From NCBI GenBank assembly GCA_963665815.1, contig OY762463.1:1152001-1216000 (forward strand): DNA of 64,000 nucleotides, read 5' to 3'. The DNA comes from Candidatus Cloacimonadales bacterium. Lineage in GTDB: Bacteria; Cloacimonadota; Cloacimonadia; Cloacimonadales; JAIOQZ01. Shown here piece after piece: positions 39,703 to 49,588 of the stretch. The translations under genes and the position numbers were made by a program. Each line of letters opens with the position of its first letter. Position 1 is the first letter of the stretch. The notes beneath the pieces were generated by a model. It saw only the letters and a list, made by a program, of their open reading frames with translations, was not told where the DNA came from and did no database searches.

Positions 39703-39769
39703 TTTTCCCGATTCTTCGGGACTCAACCGACTTAACGTATTGATAGATATTGATATGATCGTTCCCTGA
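39703..39769 (+). repeat. REP-like element A, copy 2
   Basis: TCCCGATTCTTCGGGA hairpin plus a 48-nt core that is 47/48 identical to 42161-42208. Confidence 0.85.
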
Positions 39770-39783
39770 CAGACTGTGTTGCA

Positions 39784-39815
39784 CCTGACGGCGCTCGAAA
39801 AGCTGCCTGACAAAT
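39784..39815 (+). repeat. repeat B, copy 1
   Basis: CCTGACGGCGCTCGAAAAGCTGCCTGACAAAT; 30/32 identical to 42330-42361. Confidence 0.85.
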
Positions 39816-39960
39816 CTCTTTTTACAGCAGAACTTGTGCAATTTAGTTAGACATAGCTGTCAGTATCTGTATTTCCTCTTTGTCACTTAAAGTCGTTATA
39901 GGCCTACATTAAGTCTTTTCAATTGCAAATTTGTGTAATCGTTCTATCTGTTGATAAAAG

Positions 39961-40097
39961 TAAATTTTCCCGTTAAGAAATCCTGAAGCCTTGGAAGGAT
40001 TTCAGGGGAGATTTATGGTTCCAGCTTGCTGGAAATACATTTTGATAAAGAGTGCCTTTCTTTTGCTTCGTTTTCTTTGGCACCAAAGAAAATGAAG
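39961..40097 (+). repeat. 137-bp palindrome-rich MITE/REP-like element C, copy 1
   Basis: Its reverse complement matches 42426-42562 at 124/137 by manual alignment; internal hairpins TTCCAGC..GCTGGAA and TTTTCTTTGG..CCAAAGAAAA. Confidence 0.9.
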
Positions 40098-40142
40098 AAA
40101 CAAATATCAGGAGTTAAAAATATAAAATGGATTGAAAGATGT

Positions 40143-40236
40143 AGAAAACAGTTGACTTATTGAGCATAATTCATTCAATCAGGTATTGATACTAAAATCC
40201 ATGTAATCTGTGAGGACTGATGAAATTTCGCATTTT
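40143..40236 (+). repeat. duplicated promoter/RBS/start module, copy 2
   Basis: Near-identical to 36330-36424. Confidence 0.9.
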
Positions 40237-41173
40237 TATTATTCTCCTTCTCTGCCTGCTGCTATTTGCCTGTACAGAGAAGAAACAAAATCCAACATTG
40301 GATGTTAAACAAATCAGTTTATTCAAAGTACCCGAACTGTATAAATCCCCGGTTGTATGTGCTGCTAATAATAAAATAGTATTCACTGACGCTGAGGATG
40401 GGGTTATTTATGTTTATAATTATGCTGGAGAGAAACTTAAATCCTTTGGCAATAAAGGACAGGGTCCCGGTGAATTTCAAGGGGTATATCATATAGTCTA
40501 TCAGGAGAATCAGAATCTATGGTACTTTTACGATCTATACCATTGGAAAATCCATGTTTATTCTGATACTTTCGATTACATCAAATCTGAGAAAACATCT
40601 TCTATAATTGCAGGAATGAAACCGTGGAAAGATAATGTTCTTATACAAGTAAGAATTCCGGTAAGTGTCGATGGATCACGAATTTTTGACGACAGGATAA
40701 AAGTGTTCAACCCAAAAGGTGAAGAAAAGACTATCAGGAACAAGCTGCTGAAATCAATAACAGATGTTGAGTTTATGCTAGAATACGGCTTGATGTTTGA
40801 TACGAATTCCAACAAGCTGTTTGTTCTGGATAAACAGCAGAATACTTTCTCCGTAGAAGAGTACACAGACGAGAACACAAAAATCAAATGGGAAATGGAA
40901 GACAACATAACTGTAATAGATAATGCGAAAATATCGGGTATCTATGCAGGAAAAGACTTTATCATTATAAAAAGGCTTAAACCTGAAGATGAGGAAGATA
41001 CATACTATACTTATTATGAGTTCTATGATTTCAATCAGCACTATCTGGGTAAGCTAATACTGAATAATAAAAATGAGTACATAATAGATGTGTACGAGAG
41101 CAAACTGATTAAACTTGTGAAAGACGAAAATGGTGACTACTCATGCAGTATTCTGGAGGTAAAGTTATTGTGA
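40220..41173 (+). CDS. 6-bladed beta-propeller lipoprotein 4
   Basis: Lipobox LFAC; IYVYNYAG..FGNKGQGPGEF. Confidence 0.8.
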   Translation: MKFRIFIILLLCLLLFACTEKKQNPTLDVKQISLFKVPELYKSPVVCAANNKIVFTDAEDGVIYVYNYAGEKLKSFGNKGQGPGEFQGVYHIVYQENQNLWYFYDLYHWKIHVYSDTFDYIKSEKTSSIIAGMKPWKDNVLIQVRIPVSVDGSRIFDDRIKVFNPKGEEKTIRNKLLKSITDVEFMLEYGLMFDTNSNKLFVLDKQQNTFSVEEYTDENTKIKWEMEDNITVIDNAKISGIYAGKDFIIIKRLKPEDEEDTYYTYYEFYDFNQHYLGKLILNNKNEYIIDVYESKLIKLVKDENGDYSCSILEVKLL

Positions 41174-42111
41174 CAGTAGTAAGAAACTTCGCATTCATTT
41201 TTATTTTAATGTTCGTAATTTCCGGCTGTTCAGATAGACGTAATTCTGATGGAAAGCTATCTATTTTGCCAGTTATCAGCTTTGAGATAGAAGGAGCAGG
41301 CAGTTCTCCAATTGTACATGCATCAAAAGATTATATTTTCATCAGTGATATGCTTGATGGAATTGTAAATGTATATAACTATGAGGGAAATAAAATCAAA
41401 ACCTTTGGCAGTAAAGGAAAAGGACCGGGTGAGTTTTTGTCAGTATCGATGTTATGCCGGTTAGAACCATTAGATGAATTAGTAATATATGATGTTTACC
41501 AGAAGAGACTTTCATTCTTCAATAAAGAGTTTGAACTCAGCAATACCGTAAATATTCAGGAATACCTTTTGAGTATACAGCCACTTCAGAACAATTTACT
41601 TTATGTTACCAGAAAACCTGCAGAAAATGGAATGATGAGTGGTTTCAACGATTTAGTAACTATGAAAAATATTAGTTCTGATGAAAAAATCATAACTAAG
41701 AAATTTCTGCCTGCTTCTGATGATGTTTTAACTTATGTGGACAAAGGTCTGCTGATTGATACAAACTCAGAGAATTTGTTCGTTCTGAATAGAGGCGATG
41801 ATTTCGTAATTGAGCAGTATGTTAACGGAACAAACAAGAAAATCTGGAAATTGAATAAAGAAAAAATAAACATTGAGTTCACAAAACTAAATTCTATTCA
41901 TTGTGGTAGTAATTTCATCATTTTGAATTTGGTAAAGGCAGATAACTCTATGAACTATGCATTCTTTGATTTCGACGAACAATTTCTGGGAGAACTCAAC
42001 ATGAATACAGAAAATGAGTATATTATTGATGTACACAAAAACAAACTTATTAAGCTTGTAACTGATGAAAATGGTGATTACATCTGTAGTATTATGGAGG
42101 TAAAGTTTTAA
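41170..42111 (+). CDS. 6-bladed beta-propeller lipoprotein 5
   Basis: GTG start overlapping the upstream TGA, GGAGG RBS; lipobox ISGC; FGSKGKGPGEF. Confidence 0.8.
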   Translation: MTVVRNFAFIFILMFVISGCSDRRNSDGKLSILPVISFEIEGAGSSPIVHASKDYIFISDMLDGIVNVYNYEGNKIKTFGSKGKGPGEFLSVSMLCRLEPLDELVIYDVYQKRLSFFNKEFELSNTVNIQEYLLSIQPLQNNLLYVTRKPAENGMMSGFNDLVTMKNISSDEKIITKKFLPASDDVLTYVDKGLLIDTNSENLFVLNRGDDFVIEQYVNGTNKKIWKLNKEKINIEFTKLNSIHCGSNFIILNLVKADNSMNYAFFDFDEQFLGELNMNTENEYIIDVHKNKLIKLVTDENGDYICSIMEVKF

Positions 42112-42147: not shown

Positions 42148-42222
42148 CCTTTTGACTCAGCTCAACCGACTTAAAGTATTGATAGATATTGATATGATCG
42201 TTCCCTGAGCGGAGTCGAAGGG
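42148..42222 (+). repeat. REP-like element A, copy 3 (REP doublet with terminal inverted repeats)
   Basis: CCTTTTGACTCAGCTCA ... TGAGCGGAGTCGAAGG imperfect inverted ends. Confidence 0.85.
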
Positions 42223-42329
42223 GAATCAGTTTTAAGTGAATGAAGCGACAAAAATCACTTATTTACTCAGTTTGTCAGAAATCACAGCAACAAACCAGCT
42301 TACTTCTCACTTTTAATTTACAGGTCGCT

Positions 42330-42361
42330 CCTGACGGAGCTCGAAGAGCTGCCTGACAAAT
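42330..42361 (+). repeat. repeat B, copy 2
   Basis: CCTGACGGAGCTCGAAGAGCTGCCTGACAAAT. Confidence 0.85.
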
Positions 42362-42425
42362 TTCATCGAAATCCGTGTATAAATACTTAATTCACCGCAG
42401 ATAAATTAAGATAAATATAATATTC

Positions 42426-42562
42426 CTTCATTTTCTTTGATGCCAAAGAAAACGAAGCAAAAGAAAAGCACTCTTTTTTTAGATGTATTTCCAGCATGCT
42501 GGAACCATGAATATCCCCTGAAATCCTTCCAAGGGTTCTGGATTTCTTAACGAGGAAATTTA
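42426..42562 (-). repeat. element C, copy 2 (inverted)
   Basis: About 90% identical to the reverse complement of 39961-40097. Confidence 0.9.
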
Positions 42563-42615: not shown

Positions 42616-42653
42616 AAAAAAAGCTCTGCCTGACCGAACAGTCAGGCAAAGCT
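42616..42653 (-). terminator. rho-independent terminator of the ABC operon
   Basis: Minus strand AGCTTTGCCTGAC-loop-GTCAGGCAGAGCT followed by a T run. Confidence 0.8.
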
Positions 42654-42670
42654 CTATCAAACATCAACTG

Positions 42671-44071
42671 CTACCTTACGTCATATTTTCTCAAGACAAA
42701 CAGACTTGTGGCAAAAATCAGCAGATTGTATAGAATCAGCAAAGCGAAGGGGCTCACAGCATGCTCTATTCTATCTGCAACAGTAGACTCTGCATATTCA
42801 GAACTAACGAGTTTTTCAGGATGTTCAAAAGCTGCGGTTGTGAATGTATTCCTTCCATCACTCCATGCCCAGTTATAGAATTGATGCAGACTGTTCTCAT
42901 CTTCTTCATCCTGTTTCTTAGCTAGTTCTGACACCTCATCAAGTTTATTGTAAAACTGTTTTTTCTCATTCCTGTATCTAAGGAATCCTATATCAAGGAT
43001 TGAGTTACCGATCCTCCTGAGAAGTTCATAAGGAGACAAAATGGAAAGTTTTAATATCGTTTTCGTCTGGGCTTCAGCATCTCTCAGATACTTTTCCCAC
43101 TCTGCCATTTTCAGAGCATTGGCAGCTTTGACAGCTCCGGATCTCAAACCCTTTTCAACATACATATTACCGGCAACATAGTGCTCATTCTTCTCTTTAT
43201 CATCGTACTTATCACTCCAACGATTAAACTCAGCATTAAAAGCTTCATTCATACGAGTCAAGTATGCTCCAATTGCATCAACTCTGGTTAACTGATTACC
43301 AACAAGTATCGCAGTCTTTGGTATTATCACAATAAACAACAGCCAGCAGACCAAAGCCTTAACAACTGCCGAGTTAGCATTCTTTGCCATGGATATAAGT
43401 ATCCCAAGCAGTATAAAAAAGCTTATATAAATTATTGAGACAAGGCTCCATACGAGTGACTCTAAGATCAGAGAGCCGTTAATCCCTTTATTGAGAAATG
43501 TCCAGATAATAAGTGATAGAACCTGTCCCGCTAGTATTGTAACAAAAAACAGACTGAGAAGACTTGCATACTTAGACACAAGTATCTTATAGCGTGAGTA
43601 TCCTGATATAATCAGCAATCTCAGTGTAGAATTCTGTTTTTCCTCCGATATAACATTATAACTGAAAATGAGAGCTGAAAAACTGCACAAGAAGCCAATA
43701 ATGAAGAACCAGTTGATCCTCTGTTTATAGTCATCATAATTGTGAACAGCTTCTACCTGACGATAAGTAAGTCCACTGGAAAAACCTACAGGATACGATT
43801 CATCTCTCTGAATCACCATAGAGCTCAATGGCTTTCTCATGTAAGTCACTTTTGCATTTGCAATCATCCATGACAAATTTCCCGAACGCTCCGAAGCGCT
43901 ATTCTGAAGAATTTTATACTTGTTATTGTATTTATCAAGATCATCCCTGTACTTGATTGAATTGGAGAAAGCTCCTACAACAAACAGGACTATCAGGATT
44001 GAAAAGAATATCTGAAATTTCAGTTCTTTTACCAGCAGTAAACAGTCTTTTTTGTATAAATTATAAAACAT
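42671..44071 (-). CDS. ABC-2 type transporter permease with large extracytoplasmic loops
   Basis: YNVISEEKQNSTLRLL...SR.KILVSK EAA-like motif; about 6 TM. Confidence 0.88.
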   Translation of the reverse strand: MFYNLYKKDCLLLVKELKFQIFFSILIVLFVVGAFSNSIKYRDDLDKYNNKYKILQNSASERSGNLSWMIANAKVTYMRKPLSSMVIQRDESYPVGFSSGLTYRQVEAVHNYDDYKQRINWFFIIGFLCSFSALIFSYNVISEEKQNSTLRLLIISGYSRYKILVSKYASLLSLFFVTILAGQVLSLIIWTFLNKGINGSLILESLVWSLVSIIYISFFILLGILISMAKNANSAVVKALVCWLLFIVIIPKTAILVGNQLTRVDAIGAYLTRMNEAFNAEFNRWSDKYDDKEKNEHYVAGNMYVEKGLRSGAVKAANALKMAEWEKYLRDAEAQTKTILKLSILSPYELLRRIGNSILDIGFLRYRNEKKQFYNKLDEVSELAKKQDEEDENSLHQFYNWAWSDGRNTFTTAAFEHPEKLVSSEYAESTVADRIEHAVSPFALLILYNLLIFATSLFVLRKYDVR

Positions 44072-44082
44072 CTTTCTTCCCC

Positions 44083-45669
44083 CTATCTGATATCAAACTT
44101 GTACATCAGGTAATAACAGACAATAAGCAGCACGATTATAATCATCAGGAACTGCAGCAAAATTCTGAACGTCCTGCTCAATGATTTGCCTGCACTTAAG
44201 CCTTTAAACTCATACTTAGGCAGGTCAGGGAACTTGAAGTCAAATCTTTCCAATGAGTTAAAATGTGCCAGGCAAACATCTGAATACTCTTGCTGAAGTC
44301 GAGACTTATCTTCCTGTGTCATCTCATGCCCAAGTTTTTTGATGAACTCAGCAGCAAACTCGTTCACATCATAACATACTTCCCCCGGTTCCATCATTGC
44401 ATAATACTCATCACTGTACAACCAGTTATTCTTGATTGCCAAATCAATAAGTCTGTTCCTGAGAGAAACTCCATCCCGCATAAAGTTGATCATATCATCG
44501 ATATCATATCCGGAGTTTTTCTGTGCTGCATCTTCAAAAAGAGCAATTGGTGATGCAAACAAATATAAAGATTTACTTCTCTCCTGCTTTTCCATCAACA
44601 AGAACAATTCCTGCTGTATGTTCTCCATTTTCTGCATCAGAGGATAATAGTCTTCATAAAACACTTTAACTCTGAGTGTCCTGTAATCTAAAACACTGCG
44701 AGTTGTGTACAGGATTGTATTTGTCAACCCTCTCCAACCATTCGAGTTATTATACCAATAAAAGAAGTCTCTTGGTTTATCCTGTAGCCGTTCAGAGCGA
44801 TCGAAATTATCAATTTCTTTCTGAAGCTCTCCAATTTCTTCTCTCATAGCTCTTTGCTGCTTCATTCCGTTTATTTTGTTTGAGAAAAATGAATACCCAA
44901 CAGGTACAAGCACTAACAGGAAAATCCAGATTGCCAGTACCAGAACAAGCGATTTTGCTGTTCTTTTGAAAACAAGTGAGCAAATCGTTCCAATCAAAGC
45001 AAAACATAAAACAAACAGGAATGCAAAAAGCAGATAGTTGACAAGACTAACATAAAAGTATGATGTAATATAGCTTGAATGTTTTATCACCAAATAAAGC
45101 ACACTTAACAGAGTAGGCACCAGTAATACCGTAAATGCGAACAGTGATATTGTCAGAATCTTTACAATCAGAAAGGTGAATTTCTGCACAGGATATGTGA
45201 ACATAAGCCTCAGAGTGCCGTTTTCTTTCTCTCCGTTAATTGTATCGAAGGCTATCAGCAGCACAAACAGTGACAGAAAAAAGGTTATCAGGAATGTTAC
45301 ATCCATATCAAACTTTGTGGGATGAACAGGATTGATTGTCTGTGAAAATGCTGAAGGTCTGGTTATTGATTCAAACATTCTGACTTCAATAATATTTCCG
45401 TATTTATGAGTAATTCCCTCATGAAAGACACTGAACAATTGCGGTGGAATTACAGCCGGTATCATCAGGTAACTATAGTTCTGAGATCTTCCAATTTCCT
45501 TCTGCAACATCTCATTATCATTTATATACTGCTGCTGTCGCTGATTGAACTCACTTAGACGCAGAGAGAATGTAACTCCAAACAGCACCATGAAAATACA
45601 AATCGACCAGATTACTCTATTACTCCTCAGAAGCCTTTTGTACTCGTGTTTTACCAATAGACTGAACAT
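44083..45669 (-). CDS. ABC-2 type transporter permease with large extracytoplasmic loops
   Basis: FDTINGEKENGTLRLMF..PV motif; about 6 TM. Confidence 0.88.
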   Translation of the reverse strand: MFSLLVKHEYKRLLRSNRVIWSICIFMVLFGVTFSLRLSEFNQRQQQYINDNEMLQKEIGRSQNYSYLMIPAVIPPQLFSVFHEGITHKYGNIIEVRMFESITRPSAFSQTINPVHPTKFDMDVTFLITFFLSLFVLLIAFDTINGEKENGTLRLMFTYPVQKFTFLIVKILTISLFAFTVLLVPTLLSVLYLVIKHSSYITSYFYVSLVNYLLFAFLFVLCFALIGTICSLVFKRTAKSLVLVLAIWIFLLVLVPVGYSFFSNKINGMKQQRAMREEIGELQKEIDNFDRSERLQDKPRDFFYWYNNSNGWRGLTNTILYTTRSVLDYRTLRVKVFYEDYYPLMQKMENIQQELFLLMEKQERSKSLYLFASPIALFEDAAQKNSGYDIDDMINFMRDGVSLRNRLIDLAIKNNWLYSDEYYAMMEPGEVCYDVNEFAAEFIKKLGHEMTQEDKSRLQQEYSDVCLAHFNSLERFDFKFPDLPKYEFKGLSAGKSLSRTFRILLQFLMIIIVLLIVCYYLMYKFDIR

Positions 45670-45678
45670 AGCCTCTCC

Positions 45679-46416
45679 TTAATCTGCTTCAACAGATAAT
45701 GAGTTTTCTATTCTGCCTTCCATATAGTCTATATACAGATTTTCCAGATTTTCAAACTCGAATTCATCACGTCTTCTTGAAAGCACAAGTTCACCATCCT
45801 TCATAATACCTATCTGGTCAGCCAGTTCTTTAGCTCTGAATATGTTATGAGTAGACATCAGAACAGCTTTACCGTCTTTCTTCATTCTCAAGACCAGATC
45901 CTGAAAATCCTTTGCGGCTTTTGGATCGAGACCGGAAAAAGGTTCATCCATAAGAATAATATCAGCATCCTTAACAATTGCTATAGCAATACCTGTCTTC
46001 TGTCTCATACCCTTGGAGTAATAGCTGACCGGTTTGTTGATAAAGCTCTCCTGTAGTCCGATATCCCTGAGGATATTCTCAAGCTCGGTTCTTGATCTGC
46101 TTGTTTTGCTTAGATTAGAAAAGAACTTAAGATTTTCATATCCTGTAAAATTCTCATATAATCTGACATTCTCAGAAATATATGCAATATCATTCTTTGC
46201 TTCTCTGGAGTCCTGCACAGAGTCTTTTCCATTAATGATGATTGTTCCCTCGGTAGGTTTTATAAAACCGCAGATAAGGTTTATTGTTGTTGATTTACCT
46301 GCCCCATTCGCCCCGAGAAGCACGTAAATTTCGCCACTTTCAACGTTAAAACTGATGTGATCCAATGCGATCTTCTTGTCTTCATACCTCTTTGTTAAAT
46401 CCTTAATCTTTAACAT
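45679..46416 (-). CDS. ABC transporter ATP-binding protein
   Basis: GANGAGKST, YSKGMRQK, LMDEPFSGLDP, MSTH. Confidence 0.95.
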   Translation of the reverse strand: MLKIKDLTKRYEDKKIALDHISFNVESGEIYVLLGANGAGKSTTINLICGFIKPTEGTIIINGKDSVQDSREAKNDIAYISENVRLYENFTGYENLKFFSNLSKTSRSRTELENILRDIGLQESFINKPVSYYSKGMRQKTGIAIAIVKDADIILMDEPFSGLDPKAAKDFQDLVLRMKKDGKAVLMSTHNIFRAKELADQIGIMKDGELVLSRRRDEFEFENLENLYIDYMEGRIENSLSVEAD

Positions 46417-46425
46417 TCTTCCTCC

Positions 46426-47850
46426 TTAATTTCGTGATAACTTCACCATGAAGTATATCAGCATTCCAAGTATTGTTATTGCCGCGAGAATCAGAATTAT
46501 ATTAAGCCAGATGTTGGACTTGTTCAAAATCTCCATTTTCAGTTCCTTATCTGACGTGAATATACTTTTACTAATATCTTTGCCCTTTGCTTTAATCCTT
46601 ACCTGATATATTCCCTGGAGTGATTTCTTATCAGGGATTATGTTGAATTTAAGCTTTTGCTCCTGCTCAGGTCCCAGCTTATCAATAAACTCAGGTTCAA
46701 TCACCTTTTCCCACCCTGATGGCATGAGCACCTCAAATGTCACATCCTTAATCACTTTCTTACCTGTATTCTTGATGCTGAATTGAGAGATTTCGAACTC
46801 TTTACCCTTTTCCTGCACAAAATACATATTGTCCAATGACAGCTCCATCTCGGCTTTGCCCACAGGAATAATCTGCAATTCACTTGATCCTGTCTCCTTG
46901 TTTTCCGAACTTAGAACATTTACACTAAACACCAGTGCTTCGTTAAACACAGATTCATCTAATTTTTCTGGAACAGATATACTTAGAGCTACATTATGAA
47001 CAGGTTCCTGAGCAGACATTGCCAGTGTTGAGATCGCAGCATTGTTCTTAGCATTAATAAAGTTGAAAGAGTAAGTTCCCGGTAGTCCTGCACAATTTAG
47101 TTTATACACCTCTCTTGAAGCTCCGAAATACTCAATTCTCAGATTGTAGATTGCTGATGCTGCAGTTTCAACTTCCTGGGAAAACACATTAGAGGTAATA
47201 ACAACAGAATGCTCCGCTGTTTTTCTCTTCAGCCACACCCTTTTCTCATCAACCTTACCTGCGTAAACTGCAGATACTGTTACAGCCTGAACATCCTTTA
47301 GCACAGAAAAATCTATTGTGTAACTTTTACCGGACAGCATTTCAGGGATATGATATTCGTAGGGTTGAGATATAATGTTCCCGGACTCATCCTTGAGCGA
47401 TACATACACATTGTATAGACTTTCAGGTCTCAGCTTCATATCTTTGAGAGTACTGATCAAATCATCTTCAAGAGCGTAAGAACCGGCTGAATTATTCCTT
47501 ATTTCCATCACAACTTTGTAACGACCTGTTTCATCTTTATATTTCTCTGCTTTCACGACAGTTATGTATGGATTTTCAAAGATTACTCCCAGCATATACT
47601 GCTGAAAATTCAGTTCATCATTCTCATACTGCAGCTTGATGTTCTCAAACTCATCTTGAGAGATGTACTTCTTCTCAAATAACTTTTGAGCTCGATTAAA
47701 TTCCTGCTCTGACTGCTCAAGCCTTTTCTTAGCTTTCTGTAATGCCAGAATACGGAACCTATCATCATTGGGATTATACTCCTGATAAGTAATTCCACTT
47801 ATGATGGACATTATTATTAAATTGATCATTAATAAAATTATTTTCTTCAT
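46426..47850 (-). CDS. NEW3/Ig-like domain membrane-anchored protein with an N-terminal coiled-coil hairpin
   Basis: Signal peptide; AKKRLEQSEQEFNRAQKLFEKKYISQDEF (resembles membrane-fusion-protein hairpins); IKNTG...PSGW..EP..I.KLGP...GIY (NEW3-like); C-terminal TM. Confidence 0.75.
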   Translation of the reverse strand: MKKIILLMINLIIMSIISGITYQEYNPNDDRFRILALQKAKKRLEQSEQEFNRAQKLFEKKYISQDEFENIKLQYENDELNFQQYMLGVIFENPYITVVKAEKYKDETGRYKVVMEIRNNSAGSYALEDDLISTLKDMKLRPESLYNVYVSLKDESGNIISQPYEYHIPEMLSGKSYTIDFSVLKDVQAVTVSAVYAGKVDEKRVWLKRKTAEHSVVITSNVFSQEVETAASAIYNLRIEYFGASREVYKLNCAGLPGTYSFNFINAKNNAAISTLAMSAQEPVHNVALSISVPEKLDESVFNEALVFSVNVLSSENKETGSSELQIIPVGKAEMELSLDNMYFVQEKGKEFEISQFSIKNTGKKVIKDVTFEVLMPSGWEKVIEPEFIDKLGPEQEQKLKFNIIPDKKSLQGIYQVRIKAKGKDISKSIFTSDKELKMEILNKSNIWLNIILILAAITILGMLIYFMVKLSRN

Positions 47851-47870
47851 TATATCTCCACCATTGATAT

Positions 47871-47887
47871 TGCATGCTGAGTGCCAA
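47871..47887 (-). promoter_or_regulatory. sigma54 -24/-12 promoter of the NEW3-ABC operon
   Basis: TTGGCACTCAGCATGCA = TGGCAC-N5-(A)TGCA with exact GG-N10-GC spacing, 20 nt upstream of the ATG. Confidence 0.75.
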
Positions 47888-47971
47888 AACATTTTTATTG
47901 TGTATTATGCGGAAAATAGAGGGTTTATAGTTAAGTTATAGCTCAGAGAAGAAATAGATACATTCCAAAAT

Positions 47972-47986
47972 TGTAGATATCTGACA
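47972..47986. promoter_or_regulatory. possible enhancer-binding-protein upstream activating sequence
   Basis: Imperfect palindrome TGTAGATATCTGACA, 85-100 bp upstream of the sigma54 box. Confidence 0.35.
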
Positions 47987-48023
47987 AAAAAGTAATTTTT
48001 ACACTGTCTGAACAGTTTTATGC

Positions 48024-48052
48024 TTGACTTTTTTTTATAAAATCTTCATATT
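48024..48052 (+). promoter_or_regulatory. putative sigma70 promoter
   Basis: TTGACT-N17-CATATT. Confidence 0.6.
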
Positions 48053-48059
48053 GAATCTT

Positions 48060-48204
48060 GTTAAATGACTTTATGTAGTATGTAAGGTTTGCAATGAGTT
48101 TATTGCACTTTTGAAGTATTGGGCGTACTTCATTAACACTCCGCAAAAGGTTAATAATACATTATATAAAGTCTGGCTGTTGAATTTCAACAGCCTTTTT
48201 TTTT
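48060..48204 (+). ncRNA. candidate structured small RNA (four-way junction plus terminator)
   Basis: P1 48067-48079/48161-48173 encloses three hairpins; bounded by the promoter and the terminator; no ORF in the track. Confidence 0.55.
48175..48204 (+). terminator. rho-independent terminator
   Basis: GGCTGTTGAA-t-TTCAACAGCC followed by T9. Confidence 0.85.
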
Positions 48205-48334
48205 ACTCAACCTTAAACATGTTGTTTTCAGGACTTTACTTCTTGATTTAACTAATGCTCAGTTTAACTATTAGCTTGACATTTAAACGATTTTCAAAAG
48301 CTGTGAAATCATAAATCAATTATTTAAGGAGAAT

Positions 48335-49537
48335 ATGATGCACGTATTAGTCGTTAACAGCGGATCATCATCAATTAAGTTTCAATTGCTTAATATGGAA
48401 ACACAACAACTTCTAGCCAAGGGACTTATTGAAAGAATAGGACTCCCAATGGGGAATTTTACTTACAAACCAAATGGAAAAGACAAACAAAGTTTTGAAT
48501 TCCCAATTCCGGAACACAAAGTTGGATTAAAGAAAATGCTGGAAGTAATTGTTGATCCTGAAATTGGTGTTATTGAAAAAATAGACCAGATTGATGCTGT
48601 TGGACACAGAATCGTGCATGGTGGAGATAAAATCAAATCTTCTATTATTCTCGATGATAAATCAATTAAAACAATCGAATCATTAATCCCTCTTGCACCG
48701 CTTCATAATCCTGCGAATCTTCAGGGTGTAACTGCTCTTAAAGAACTTCTTCCTGAGTCTACACCTCATATTGGGGCTTTTGATACAGCTTTTCACGCTT
48801 CAATGCCTGCTGAATCATACATCTACCCTCTTCCTTATGAAATGTACTCAGAGCATGGTATCAGAAGATTTGGATTCCATGGAACAAGCCATAAGTTTGT
48901 TGCATTAAGAGCTGCCGAAGTTCTCAAAAAAGATATTAATGACTTCAATTGTGTAACGGTACACCTTGGAAACGGTTCATCCCTTACTGCTGTTAAAAAT
49001 GGTAAAAGTGTTGATACAACTCTTGGTTATGGTACTATGTGCGGTGTTCCGATGGGAACAAGAGCCGGTGATATTGATCCTGCGATTATCCTTCACTTAC
49101 TTGAGGATATGGGAATGAGTATAGAAGAAGTACATAAAATGATCTACAAACAAAGCGGTATGCTTGGTTTGAGCGGAATATCTTCAGACCTTAGAGATAT
49201 TGAATCCGGAGCCAATGAAGGAAACGAGAGAGCTCAGATTGCTCTTGATGTACTTGCTCACTCTATAGCAAAAAATATTTGTGCTCTTGCTTCAAATTTT
49301 GAAAGACTTGATGCAGTTATCTTCACTGCAGGTATTGGTGAAAGATCACCTGTTGTCAGAGACCTTGTCTGCAAAAAGCTTAAGGTAATAAACGCTATGT
49401 ACGATGAAACAAAAAATGATTTCAAAGGTGACGAAAGAATTATCTCTGCAGATGATTCCCCAGTGAAAATCATGGTTGTTCCAACAAACGAAGAACTCAT
49501 GATTGCCCTCGATACTGTTGAACTTGCTAAGAAATAA
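48335..49537 (+). CDS. ackA: acetate kinase
   Basis: VNSGSSSIKF, GHRIVHGG, APLHNPANL, FDTAFH, FGFHGTSH, HLGNGSS, FTAGIGE, PTNEEL. Confidence 0.96.
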   Translation: MMHVLVVNSGSSSIKFQLLNMETQQLLAKGLIERIGLPMGNFTYKPNGKDKQSFEFPIPEHKVGLKKMLEVIVDPEIGVIEKIDQIDAVGHRIVHGGDKIKSSIILDDKSIKTIESLIPLAPLHNPANLQGVTALKELLPESTPHIGAFDTAFHASMPAESYIYPLPYEMYSEHGIRRFGFHGTSHKFVALRAAEVLKKDINDFNCVTVHLGNGSSLTAVKNGKSVDTTLGYGTMCGVPMGTRAGDIDPAIILHLLEDMGMSIEEVHKMIYKQSGMLGLSGISSDLRDIESGANEGNERAQIALDVLAHSIAKNICALASNFERLDAVIFTAGIGERSPVVRDLVCKKLKVINAMYDETKNDFKGDERIISADDSPVKIMVVPTNEELMIALDTVELAKK

Positions 49538-49559
49538 TTATTCTTTATACTATAAAATA

Positions 49560-49588
49560 AAGCTGTTGGCACTGTCAGCAGCTTTTTT
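49560..49588 (+). terminator. rho-independent terminator after ackA
   Basis: AAGCTGTTGGCA-c-TGTCAGCAGCTT followed by Ts. Confidence 0.75.

Follow-up and report, generated by a model that had tools for sequence, protein, structure and literature searches.

A candidate stand-alone structured small RNA gene between a divergent ABC operon and ackA in a Cloacimonadota genome

RoxS and RsaE of the Firmicutes are stand-alone regulatory small RNAs that end at a terminator and use an exposed C-rich loop to base-pair with mRNAs. SAM-I is a riboswitch whose aptamer is a four-way junction and whose expression platform is a terminator. RNA-OUT and RNA-IN of IS10 form a convergent antisense pair, and in the bacterial Y RNAs (YrlA) and in tRNA-like RNAs a long stem between the 5' and 3' ends closes a multi-branched module. 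In the portion of the literature that our search covered, no paper describing small RNAs of Cloacimonadota was found.

Layout of the locus and comparison with described systems

The candidate RNA element lies in the 442 nt that separate a minus-strand operon from ackA. All coordinates are those of the window, the whole 64-kb stretch of DNA that was analysed (G000:C1:1152001-1216000), which belongs to the complete 3.96-Mb genome of a Cloacimonadales bacterium with 36% G+C (G000). The only other species of the same genus among the genomes in the collection is represented by G001. The features of the locus are as follows.

42671-47892, minus strand: divergent four-gene operon (NPCBM_assoc-domain protein at 46426-47892, ABC ATPase, two ABC-2 permeases)
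48024-48052, plus strand: promoter-like site, -35 TTGACT (48024-48029), 17-nt spacer, -10 CATATT (48047-48052), scan score 9/12
48050-48202, no strand assigned: conserved island, 152/153 bases shared between G000 and G001
48060-48204, plus strand: predicted small RNA transcript of about 145 nt, its start placed from the -10 and its end from the T-run
48067-48079, plus strand: P1 5' strand GACUUUAUGUAGU, pairing with 48161-48173 (13 bp including 2 G-U), in MFE and centroid folds
48090-48107, plus strand: P2 hairpin UGCAAU/AUUGCA with loop GAGUUU, 48090-48095 pairing with 48102-48107 (6 bp), in MFE and centroid folds
48112-48132, plus strand: P3 hairpin UGAAGUAU/GUACUUCA with loop UGGGC, 48112-48119 pairing with 48125-48132 (8 bp), in MFE and centroid folds
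48133-48154, plus strand: P4 hairpin UUAAC/GUUAA with 12-nt loop ACUCCGCAAAAG (48138-48149), 48133-48137 pairing with 48150-48154 (5 bp), in MFE and centroid folds
48161-48173, plus strand: P1 3' strand AUUAUAUAAAGUC, in MFE and centroid folds
48161-48190, minus strand: promoter-like site TTGAAA-18-TATAAT facing the ABC operon, scan score 11/12
48175-48204, plus strand: intrinsic terminator, a 9-bp stem (48175-48195, 5 G-C) with a 3-nt loop, then T9 (48196-48204)
48266-48334, plus strand: conserved block upstream of ackA with TTGACA (48276-48281), a TTTCA-N7-TGAAA inverted repeat and an AAGGAG ribosome-binding site, 2 differences from G001
48335-49537, plus strand: ackA, acetate kinase (PF00871, E 2e-142)

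On the evidence assembled below, 48060-48204 on the plus strand probably encodes a structured small RNA about 145 nt long, as a stand-alone, independently transcribed and lineage-restricted gene. Transcription would proceed from its own sigma-70-type promoter at 48024-48052. The RNA would fold into a closed four-way junction (48067-48173, about 107 nt) in which the 13-bp P1 joins both ends, with three hairpins besides, and the transcript would end at an unconditional intrinsic terminator whose T-run lies 130 nt before the start of ackA at 48335. That the element is transcribed and acts as an RNA is what we infer from these signals. The sequence-only reading of this DNA had proposed the promoter TTGACT-N17-CATATT, a junction of about 110 nt with helices P1 to P4, a strong terminator directly after it and a distance of 130 nt from there to ackA. 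All four were recovered in place, every helix in both the MFE and the centroid fold.

Like RoxS and RsaE, the candidate has a promoter of its own (here a predicted one), falls in a size range of about 100-150 nt, ends at an intrinsic terminator, lies between genes and exposes a CUCC-containing loop that could pair with ribosome-binding sites. It differs from them in architecture: a 13-bp P1 closes its body into a four-way junction, where they have hairpins in a row with single-stranded seeds. It also has no sequence relation to any Rfam small RNA and no standout target, and no Hfq was found. With SAM-I it shares a four-helix junction that P1 closes, an intrinsic terminator directly after it and a metabolic gene downstream in the same orientation; in contrast to SAM-I, the candidate has no Rfam match and no antiterminator, occurs in two genomes of one genus, and is followed by a separate control region before ackA. 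If the minus-strand promoter-like site is active, the locus would also resemble RNA-OUT/RNA-IN, with face-to-face promoters, a transcript overlap of about 95 nt and one short structured RNA, but there is no transposase or mobile element at the candidate locus and the minus-strand promoter is a consensus match only. With the Y RNAs and tRNA-like RNAs the candidate shares an end-joining stem that closes a multi-branched module, whereas no Ro/TROVE protein is found in the genome, no T-loop is present, and neither ARAGORN nor Rfam gives a tRNA or Y RNA match.

Fold and conservation of the element

Folding was evaluated with ViennaRNA against 200 dinucleotide shuffles per segment. The segment 48060-48205, which includes the terminator, has an MFE of -41.5 kcal/mol, where the shuffles average -25.5 (z -4.79), and the junction without the terminator has -26.5 against -17.3 kcal/mol (z -3.06); in both cases 0/200 shuffles were as good. 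The sequence-only reading had named an energy no better than that of dinucleotide shuffles as grounds for giving up the RNA, and the fold beats 200 of 200 with or without the terminator. The opposite strand also folds significantly (z -5.5 and -3.5); any set of hairpins folds well on the opposite strand too. The junction is more stable on the plus strand (-26.5 vs -21.3 kcal/mol on the minus strand), three G-U pairs exist on the plus strand only, and the two G-U pairs of P1 become C-A mismatches on the opposite strand. The P1-P4 fold is a thermodynamic prediction, and the two known sequences, being identical across it, give no covariation. Most positions of the P4 loop have a predicted unpaired probability of about 0.7-0.9. 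A pseudoknot between the P2 loop (GAGU) and the P4 loop (ACUC) had also been suggested. The 4-bp complementarity is present, and by a rough estimate loops of these sizes would show it by chance about one time in ten, so the idea gains no support.

The terminator hairpin is worth -12.6 kcal/mol and is oriented in the plus direction only, as given by its T9 tail. Nearly identical arms (GGCTGTTGA/TCAACAGCC at 48175-48195; loci L002-L005) recur in other terminators of the genome, among them terminators that follow stand-alone tRNA genes. A DNA-uptake-sequence-like role for the terminator was considered and rejected, the enrichment of GGCTGTTGAA in the genome being too mild (24 occurrences vs 5 expected).

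The two genomes are syntenic over 42629-49588 (about 7 kb) at 85.3% identity. Against this background the flanks of the spacer are 68-83% identical, and the sole difference within the conserved island falls at 48185, in the terminator loop. No perfect run in the 7-kb block is longer than the 135 nt at 48050-48184; second comes one of 77 nt inside the ABC ATPase gene. The island starts within the plus-strand -10, some 10 nt ahead of the predicted start, and ends in the T-run of the terminator; these edges fit the limits expected of a plus-strand transcript. Farther upstream the -35 and its surroundings (GCTTGACTTTTTT) are the same in G001, the promoter spacer has diverged, and the -10 reads CAAATT. 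The promoter match taken by itself is not above chance (4 sites in an 800-nt region vs 4.8 expected), and a match as modest as 9/12 in an AT-rich region is a counterpoint to the small-RNA reading.

A wider baseline was obtained by aligning about 320 kb of G001 to G000 (82.4% identity). This alignment contains 55 perfect runs of at least 90 nt, and most of the longest 40 of the 55 lie inside ORFs. Outside the crude ORF map, those longest 40 comprise two tRNA loci, the candidate RNA and three shorter islands, the candidate being the longest run among them that is neither coding nor at a tRNA locus. For calibration, the 6S RNA is identical at 176/178 positions between the two genomes and the SRP RNA at 96/100; by this measure the element appears at least as constrained as these housekeeping RNAs. 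Contigs from three DNA sample sets of one study, which may include the source sample, show no variant within the RNA.

Non-coding runs that are identical in G001 also occur elsewhere in the genome. A 117-nt run outside the window (G000:C1:3764739-3764855; L127:140-256) has no ORF of at least 100 aa and no Rfam match, and its plus strand folds into hairpins (z -3.1) while its minus strand does not (z -1.0). A 123-nt run (G000:C1:1444652-1444774; L126) lies upstream of, and extends into the start of, a translational-GTPase-like ORF, and a 104-nt run (G000:C1:3761235-3761338; L128) lies between two flagellin-like ORFs; these last two are probably conserved leaders. Separately, in DNA runs X1 and X3 a contig from a different organism with deeper coverage matches only about 30 nt at 48110-48139, the P3 zone, and then diverges from the window; it may be a distant relative of the RNA or a chance match.

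A purely protein-coding explanation for the island was considered as well. Two short ORFs overlap it, both without a ribosome-binding site, and the one on the plus strand (48111-48251) crosses a 5-nt indel in G001. The absence of any substitution across 135 nt, where coding sequence often changes, argues against a constraint that is purely protein-coding. A small protein or type I toxin was rejected, the 42-aa minus-strand ORF having a TTG start, no ribosome-binding site and a hydrophilic product.

Search for known families and further copies

No match was found in the whole 64-kb window with the 4227 models of Rfam 15 at gathering thresholds, so the Rfam check that had been proposed for the element was run and no family reached threshold. 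In a permissive scan of 47890-48340 (E up to 10) the best hit was FopS with 17 bits (gathering 56), mostly over the terminator, and all hits were far below threshold. The sequence-only reading had set the element apart from tRNAs, and this agrees with what was observed: ARAGORN reported 0 tRNA or tmRNA genes in the window, there was no RF00005 match, and the arm and junction lengths are unlike those of a tRNA (13 bp for P1, 10 nt for the P1-P2 junction, no T-loop). Divergent versions of housekeeping RNAs were rejected, the genome's 6S RNA being located at G000:C1:3299165-3299342 (63 bits) and its SRP RNA at G000:C1:3155786-3155885 (71 bits). A bacterial Y RNA was rejected on 0 matches to PF05731 (Ro60/TROVE) in G000, which is 98.7% complete, and a CsrA sponge on the lack of a GGA motif in the sequence. 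A search of G000 for Hfq (PF17209) gave 0 matches, which sets the candidate outside the Hfq-dependent small RNAs.

The element is not a dispersed repeat of the MITE or REP kind, since BLAST finds one full-length copy in G000 with all other matches confined to the terminator, and a covariance model likewise gives 1 match. Repeats of another sort occur elsewhere in the window: two paralogous DUF5128 beta-propeller genes at 40220-42111 are bracketed by a 140-nt inverted repeat, whose arms at 39961-40100 and 42423-42562 are 90% complementary, and by two direct repeats of 48 and 41 nt, the repeats spanning 39722-40100 and 42161-42562. Copies of them are also present in G001.

When the 146-nt element was compared by BLAST with 60 relatives, it was found at full length in G001 only, the remaining matches being terminator-like or AT-rich fragments; two of the fragments (L025 and L032) were inspected and are apparently coding sequence, with no similarity beyond the short match. 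A covariance model, R1, was built from the G000 and G001 sequences and run against 151 genomes of the order, 151 of the phylum and 8 of the family (counts including G000), and only G000 and G001 matched. With filters off, R1 found nothing below E 0.8 at six ackA loci from five family relatives, whose ackA is only 45-49% identical, making these relatives very distant. A loop-anchored pattern, which demands exact loops and would miss diverged homologues, gave 22 loci in genome contigs, 1 of which matches the model (on the G001 contig), 28 loci in metagenome contigs with 0 model matches, and 2 loci in viral contigs with 0. A metagenome scan based on ackA found no relative. The homologue search that had been recommended therefore yielded one homologue, in G001, and none outside the genus in the genomes and contig sets searched. 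Among the genomes searched, the candidate RNA thus appears restricted to one genus and two genomes.

Competing readings and possible function

The alternative that survives best keeps the small RNA and adds a partner. The best promoter-like site in the region is not the plus-strand one but TTGAAA-18-TATAAT on the minus strand (48190-48161, 11/12), which the sequence-only reading had missed and which lies inside the element, with the terminator loop holding its -35 and the P1 3' strand its -10. From it the ABC-operon mRNA would start near 48154 on the minus strand, convergent with the small RNA, and its leader of about 300 nt would carry a perfect complement of roughly the first 95 nt of the small RNA, with mutual regulation through duplex formation or transcriptional interference. 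Every base would then be conserved because signals lie on both strands. The whole minus-strand site falls within the conserved island, no other minus-strand site scoring at least 9/12 occurs upstream of the operon's first gene, and the genome has few sites of this quality (287, of which 128 are intergenic). Against such a pair, the island's sole substitution weakens the -35 of this site (TTGAAA to TTGAAT in G001), a conserved -10-like block lies nearer the gene at 47924-47929 on the minus strand (TATAAA in G000, TATAAC in G001), and promoter-like hexamers can arise by chance in AT-rich helices and terminator loops. We consider the antisense pair unlikely, although part of the conservation could reflect the ABC-operon promoter and leader on the opposite strand. 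As to the operon itself, the first ORF (488 aa) is listed with an ATG at 47892 that lacks a ribosome-binding site; GGTGGAG precedes another in-frame ATG, at 47850, from which the product would begin with a signal-peptide-like sequence (MKKIILLM...), and the gene probably starts there.

A cis-acting role as leader or attenuator of ackA, in which the junction would sense a ligand or protein and gate read-through of the terminator, is less likely than the small-RNA reading and, to our judgement, distinctly improbable. The arrangement does look like an aptamer with its expression platform, in that P1 of a closed multi-stem junction stops 1 nt short of the terminator and a metabolic gene follows 130 nt further on in the same strand, and the scan finds no canonical promoter with both -35 and -10 for ackA. 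The sequence-only reading had credited ackA with a TTGACA of its own; the hexamer is present at 48276-48281, but the scan found no -10 at 16-18 nt from it, so that a promoter belonging to ackA is at most putative. Several observations weigh against a leader. No antiterminator was found: the fold of the nascent first 127 nt leaves the 5' arm of the terminator free except for a marginal 4-bp contact (probability about 0.6), and forbidding P1 does not stop the terminator hairpin from forming. Downstream of the terminator, 62 nt diverge and include a 5-nt indel; the separately conserved block that follows before ackA, with its TTGACA and inverted repeat, looks like a control region belonging to ackA, and 48276-48316 may be an operator or an activator-dependent promoter. 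There is no Rfam riboswitch match, and the ackA upstream regions searched in five family relatives yielded no similar element. A terminator riboswitch in the strict sense was rejected, since no mutually exclusive antiterminator and terminator pairing exists and in the genomes searched the aptamer-like junction was not found beyond G000 and G001.

Least likely of all, and very improbable, is a purely DNA-level explanation in which no plus-strand RNA is made and the island is a promoter with a UP-like A-tract, operators and the initial 100 nt of the ABC-operon leader; palindromic protein-binding sites would then give rise to the four-way junction as a by-product. The minus-strand site at 11/12 and the good folding of the minus strand speak for it, but a G+C-rich hairpin with T9 in the plus orientation would have nothing to terminate, terminators of the same kind follow tRNA genes elsewhere in the genome, the three G-U pairs favour the plus strand, and the island begins on its left side at the plus-strand -10 and not at any minus-strand feature.

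Within the small-RNA reading, the role we would name first, and only tentatively, is that of a regulator pairing with mRNAs in trans; an antisense partner of the divergent ABC-operon leader is somewhat less likely, and a structured RNA that binds a protein or ligand slightly less so again. As effector regions the exposed loops are the best candidates, chiefly the 12-nt P4 loop, which could contact mRNA or protein. Targets were sought on a crude map of 3008 ORFs of at least 100 aa with guessed start codons, by duplex energies combined with accessibility; this map leaves out genes below 100 aa, and the scan is rough enough that real targets may be missed. The best target had a total of -10.8 kcal/mol, a 17-bp match at -42 to -24 of the gene at G000:C1:970826, and the site is probably outside the mRNA because it overlaps that gene's own promoter, TTGACA-17-ATAAAT. 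A reversed-sequence control performed equally well or better, giving 44 sites at or below -11 kcal/mol against 30 for the RNA. The proposal that the exposed CUCC acts as an anti-Shine-Dalgarno seed gained no support from the scan of translation starts, which did no better than this control. An 8-mer match to the ribosome-binding region of the GGGP synthase gene had been pointed out as well; CGGAGTGT is indeed found at 246-253, but the match is attributed to chance because there are 36 occurrences in the genome against 49 expected from composition.

The proposal of an independent small RNA that is not a tRNA therefore stands on sequence evidence (an island conserved to the limits of a transcript, no antiterminator, no ARAGORN or Rfam match), while the specific mechanistic ideas that came with it do not. 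We think it improbable that the element founds a new class of structured RNA, a closed four-way junction acting by its fold, through binding of a protein or small molecule, rather than by seed pairing, such as a free-standing aptamer-like RNA linked to acetate or acetyl-phosphate metabolism beside ackA. Base-for-base conservation above that of the SRP RNA in the same genomes and the lack of a predicted mRNA target are points in its favour. Orphan lineage-specific small RNAs are common in bacteria, and the candidate is best described as an orphan bacterial small RNA that is not demonstrably a new class.

The value of the finding is limited by its occurrence in two genomes and by how common orphan lineage-specific small RNAs are. 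Within those bounds, the candidate RNA adjoins ackA, a central fermentation gene, and a delimited and strongly constrained RNA gene at this place would offer a first handle on RNA-based regulation in an uncultivated syntrophic lineage.
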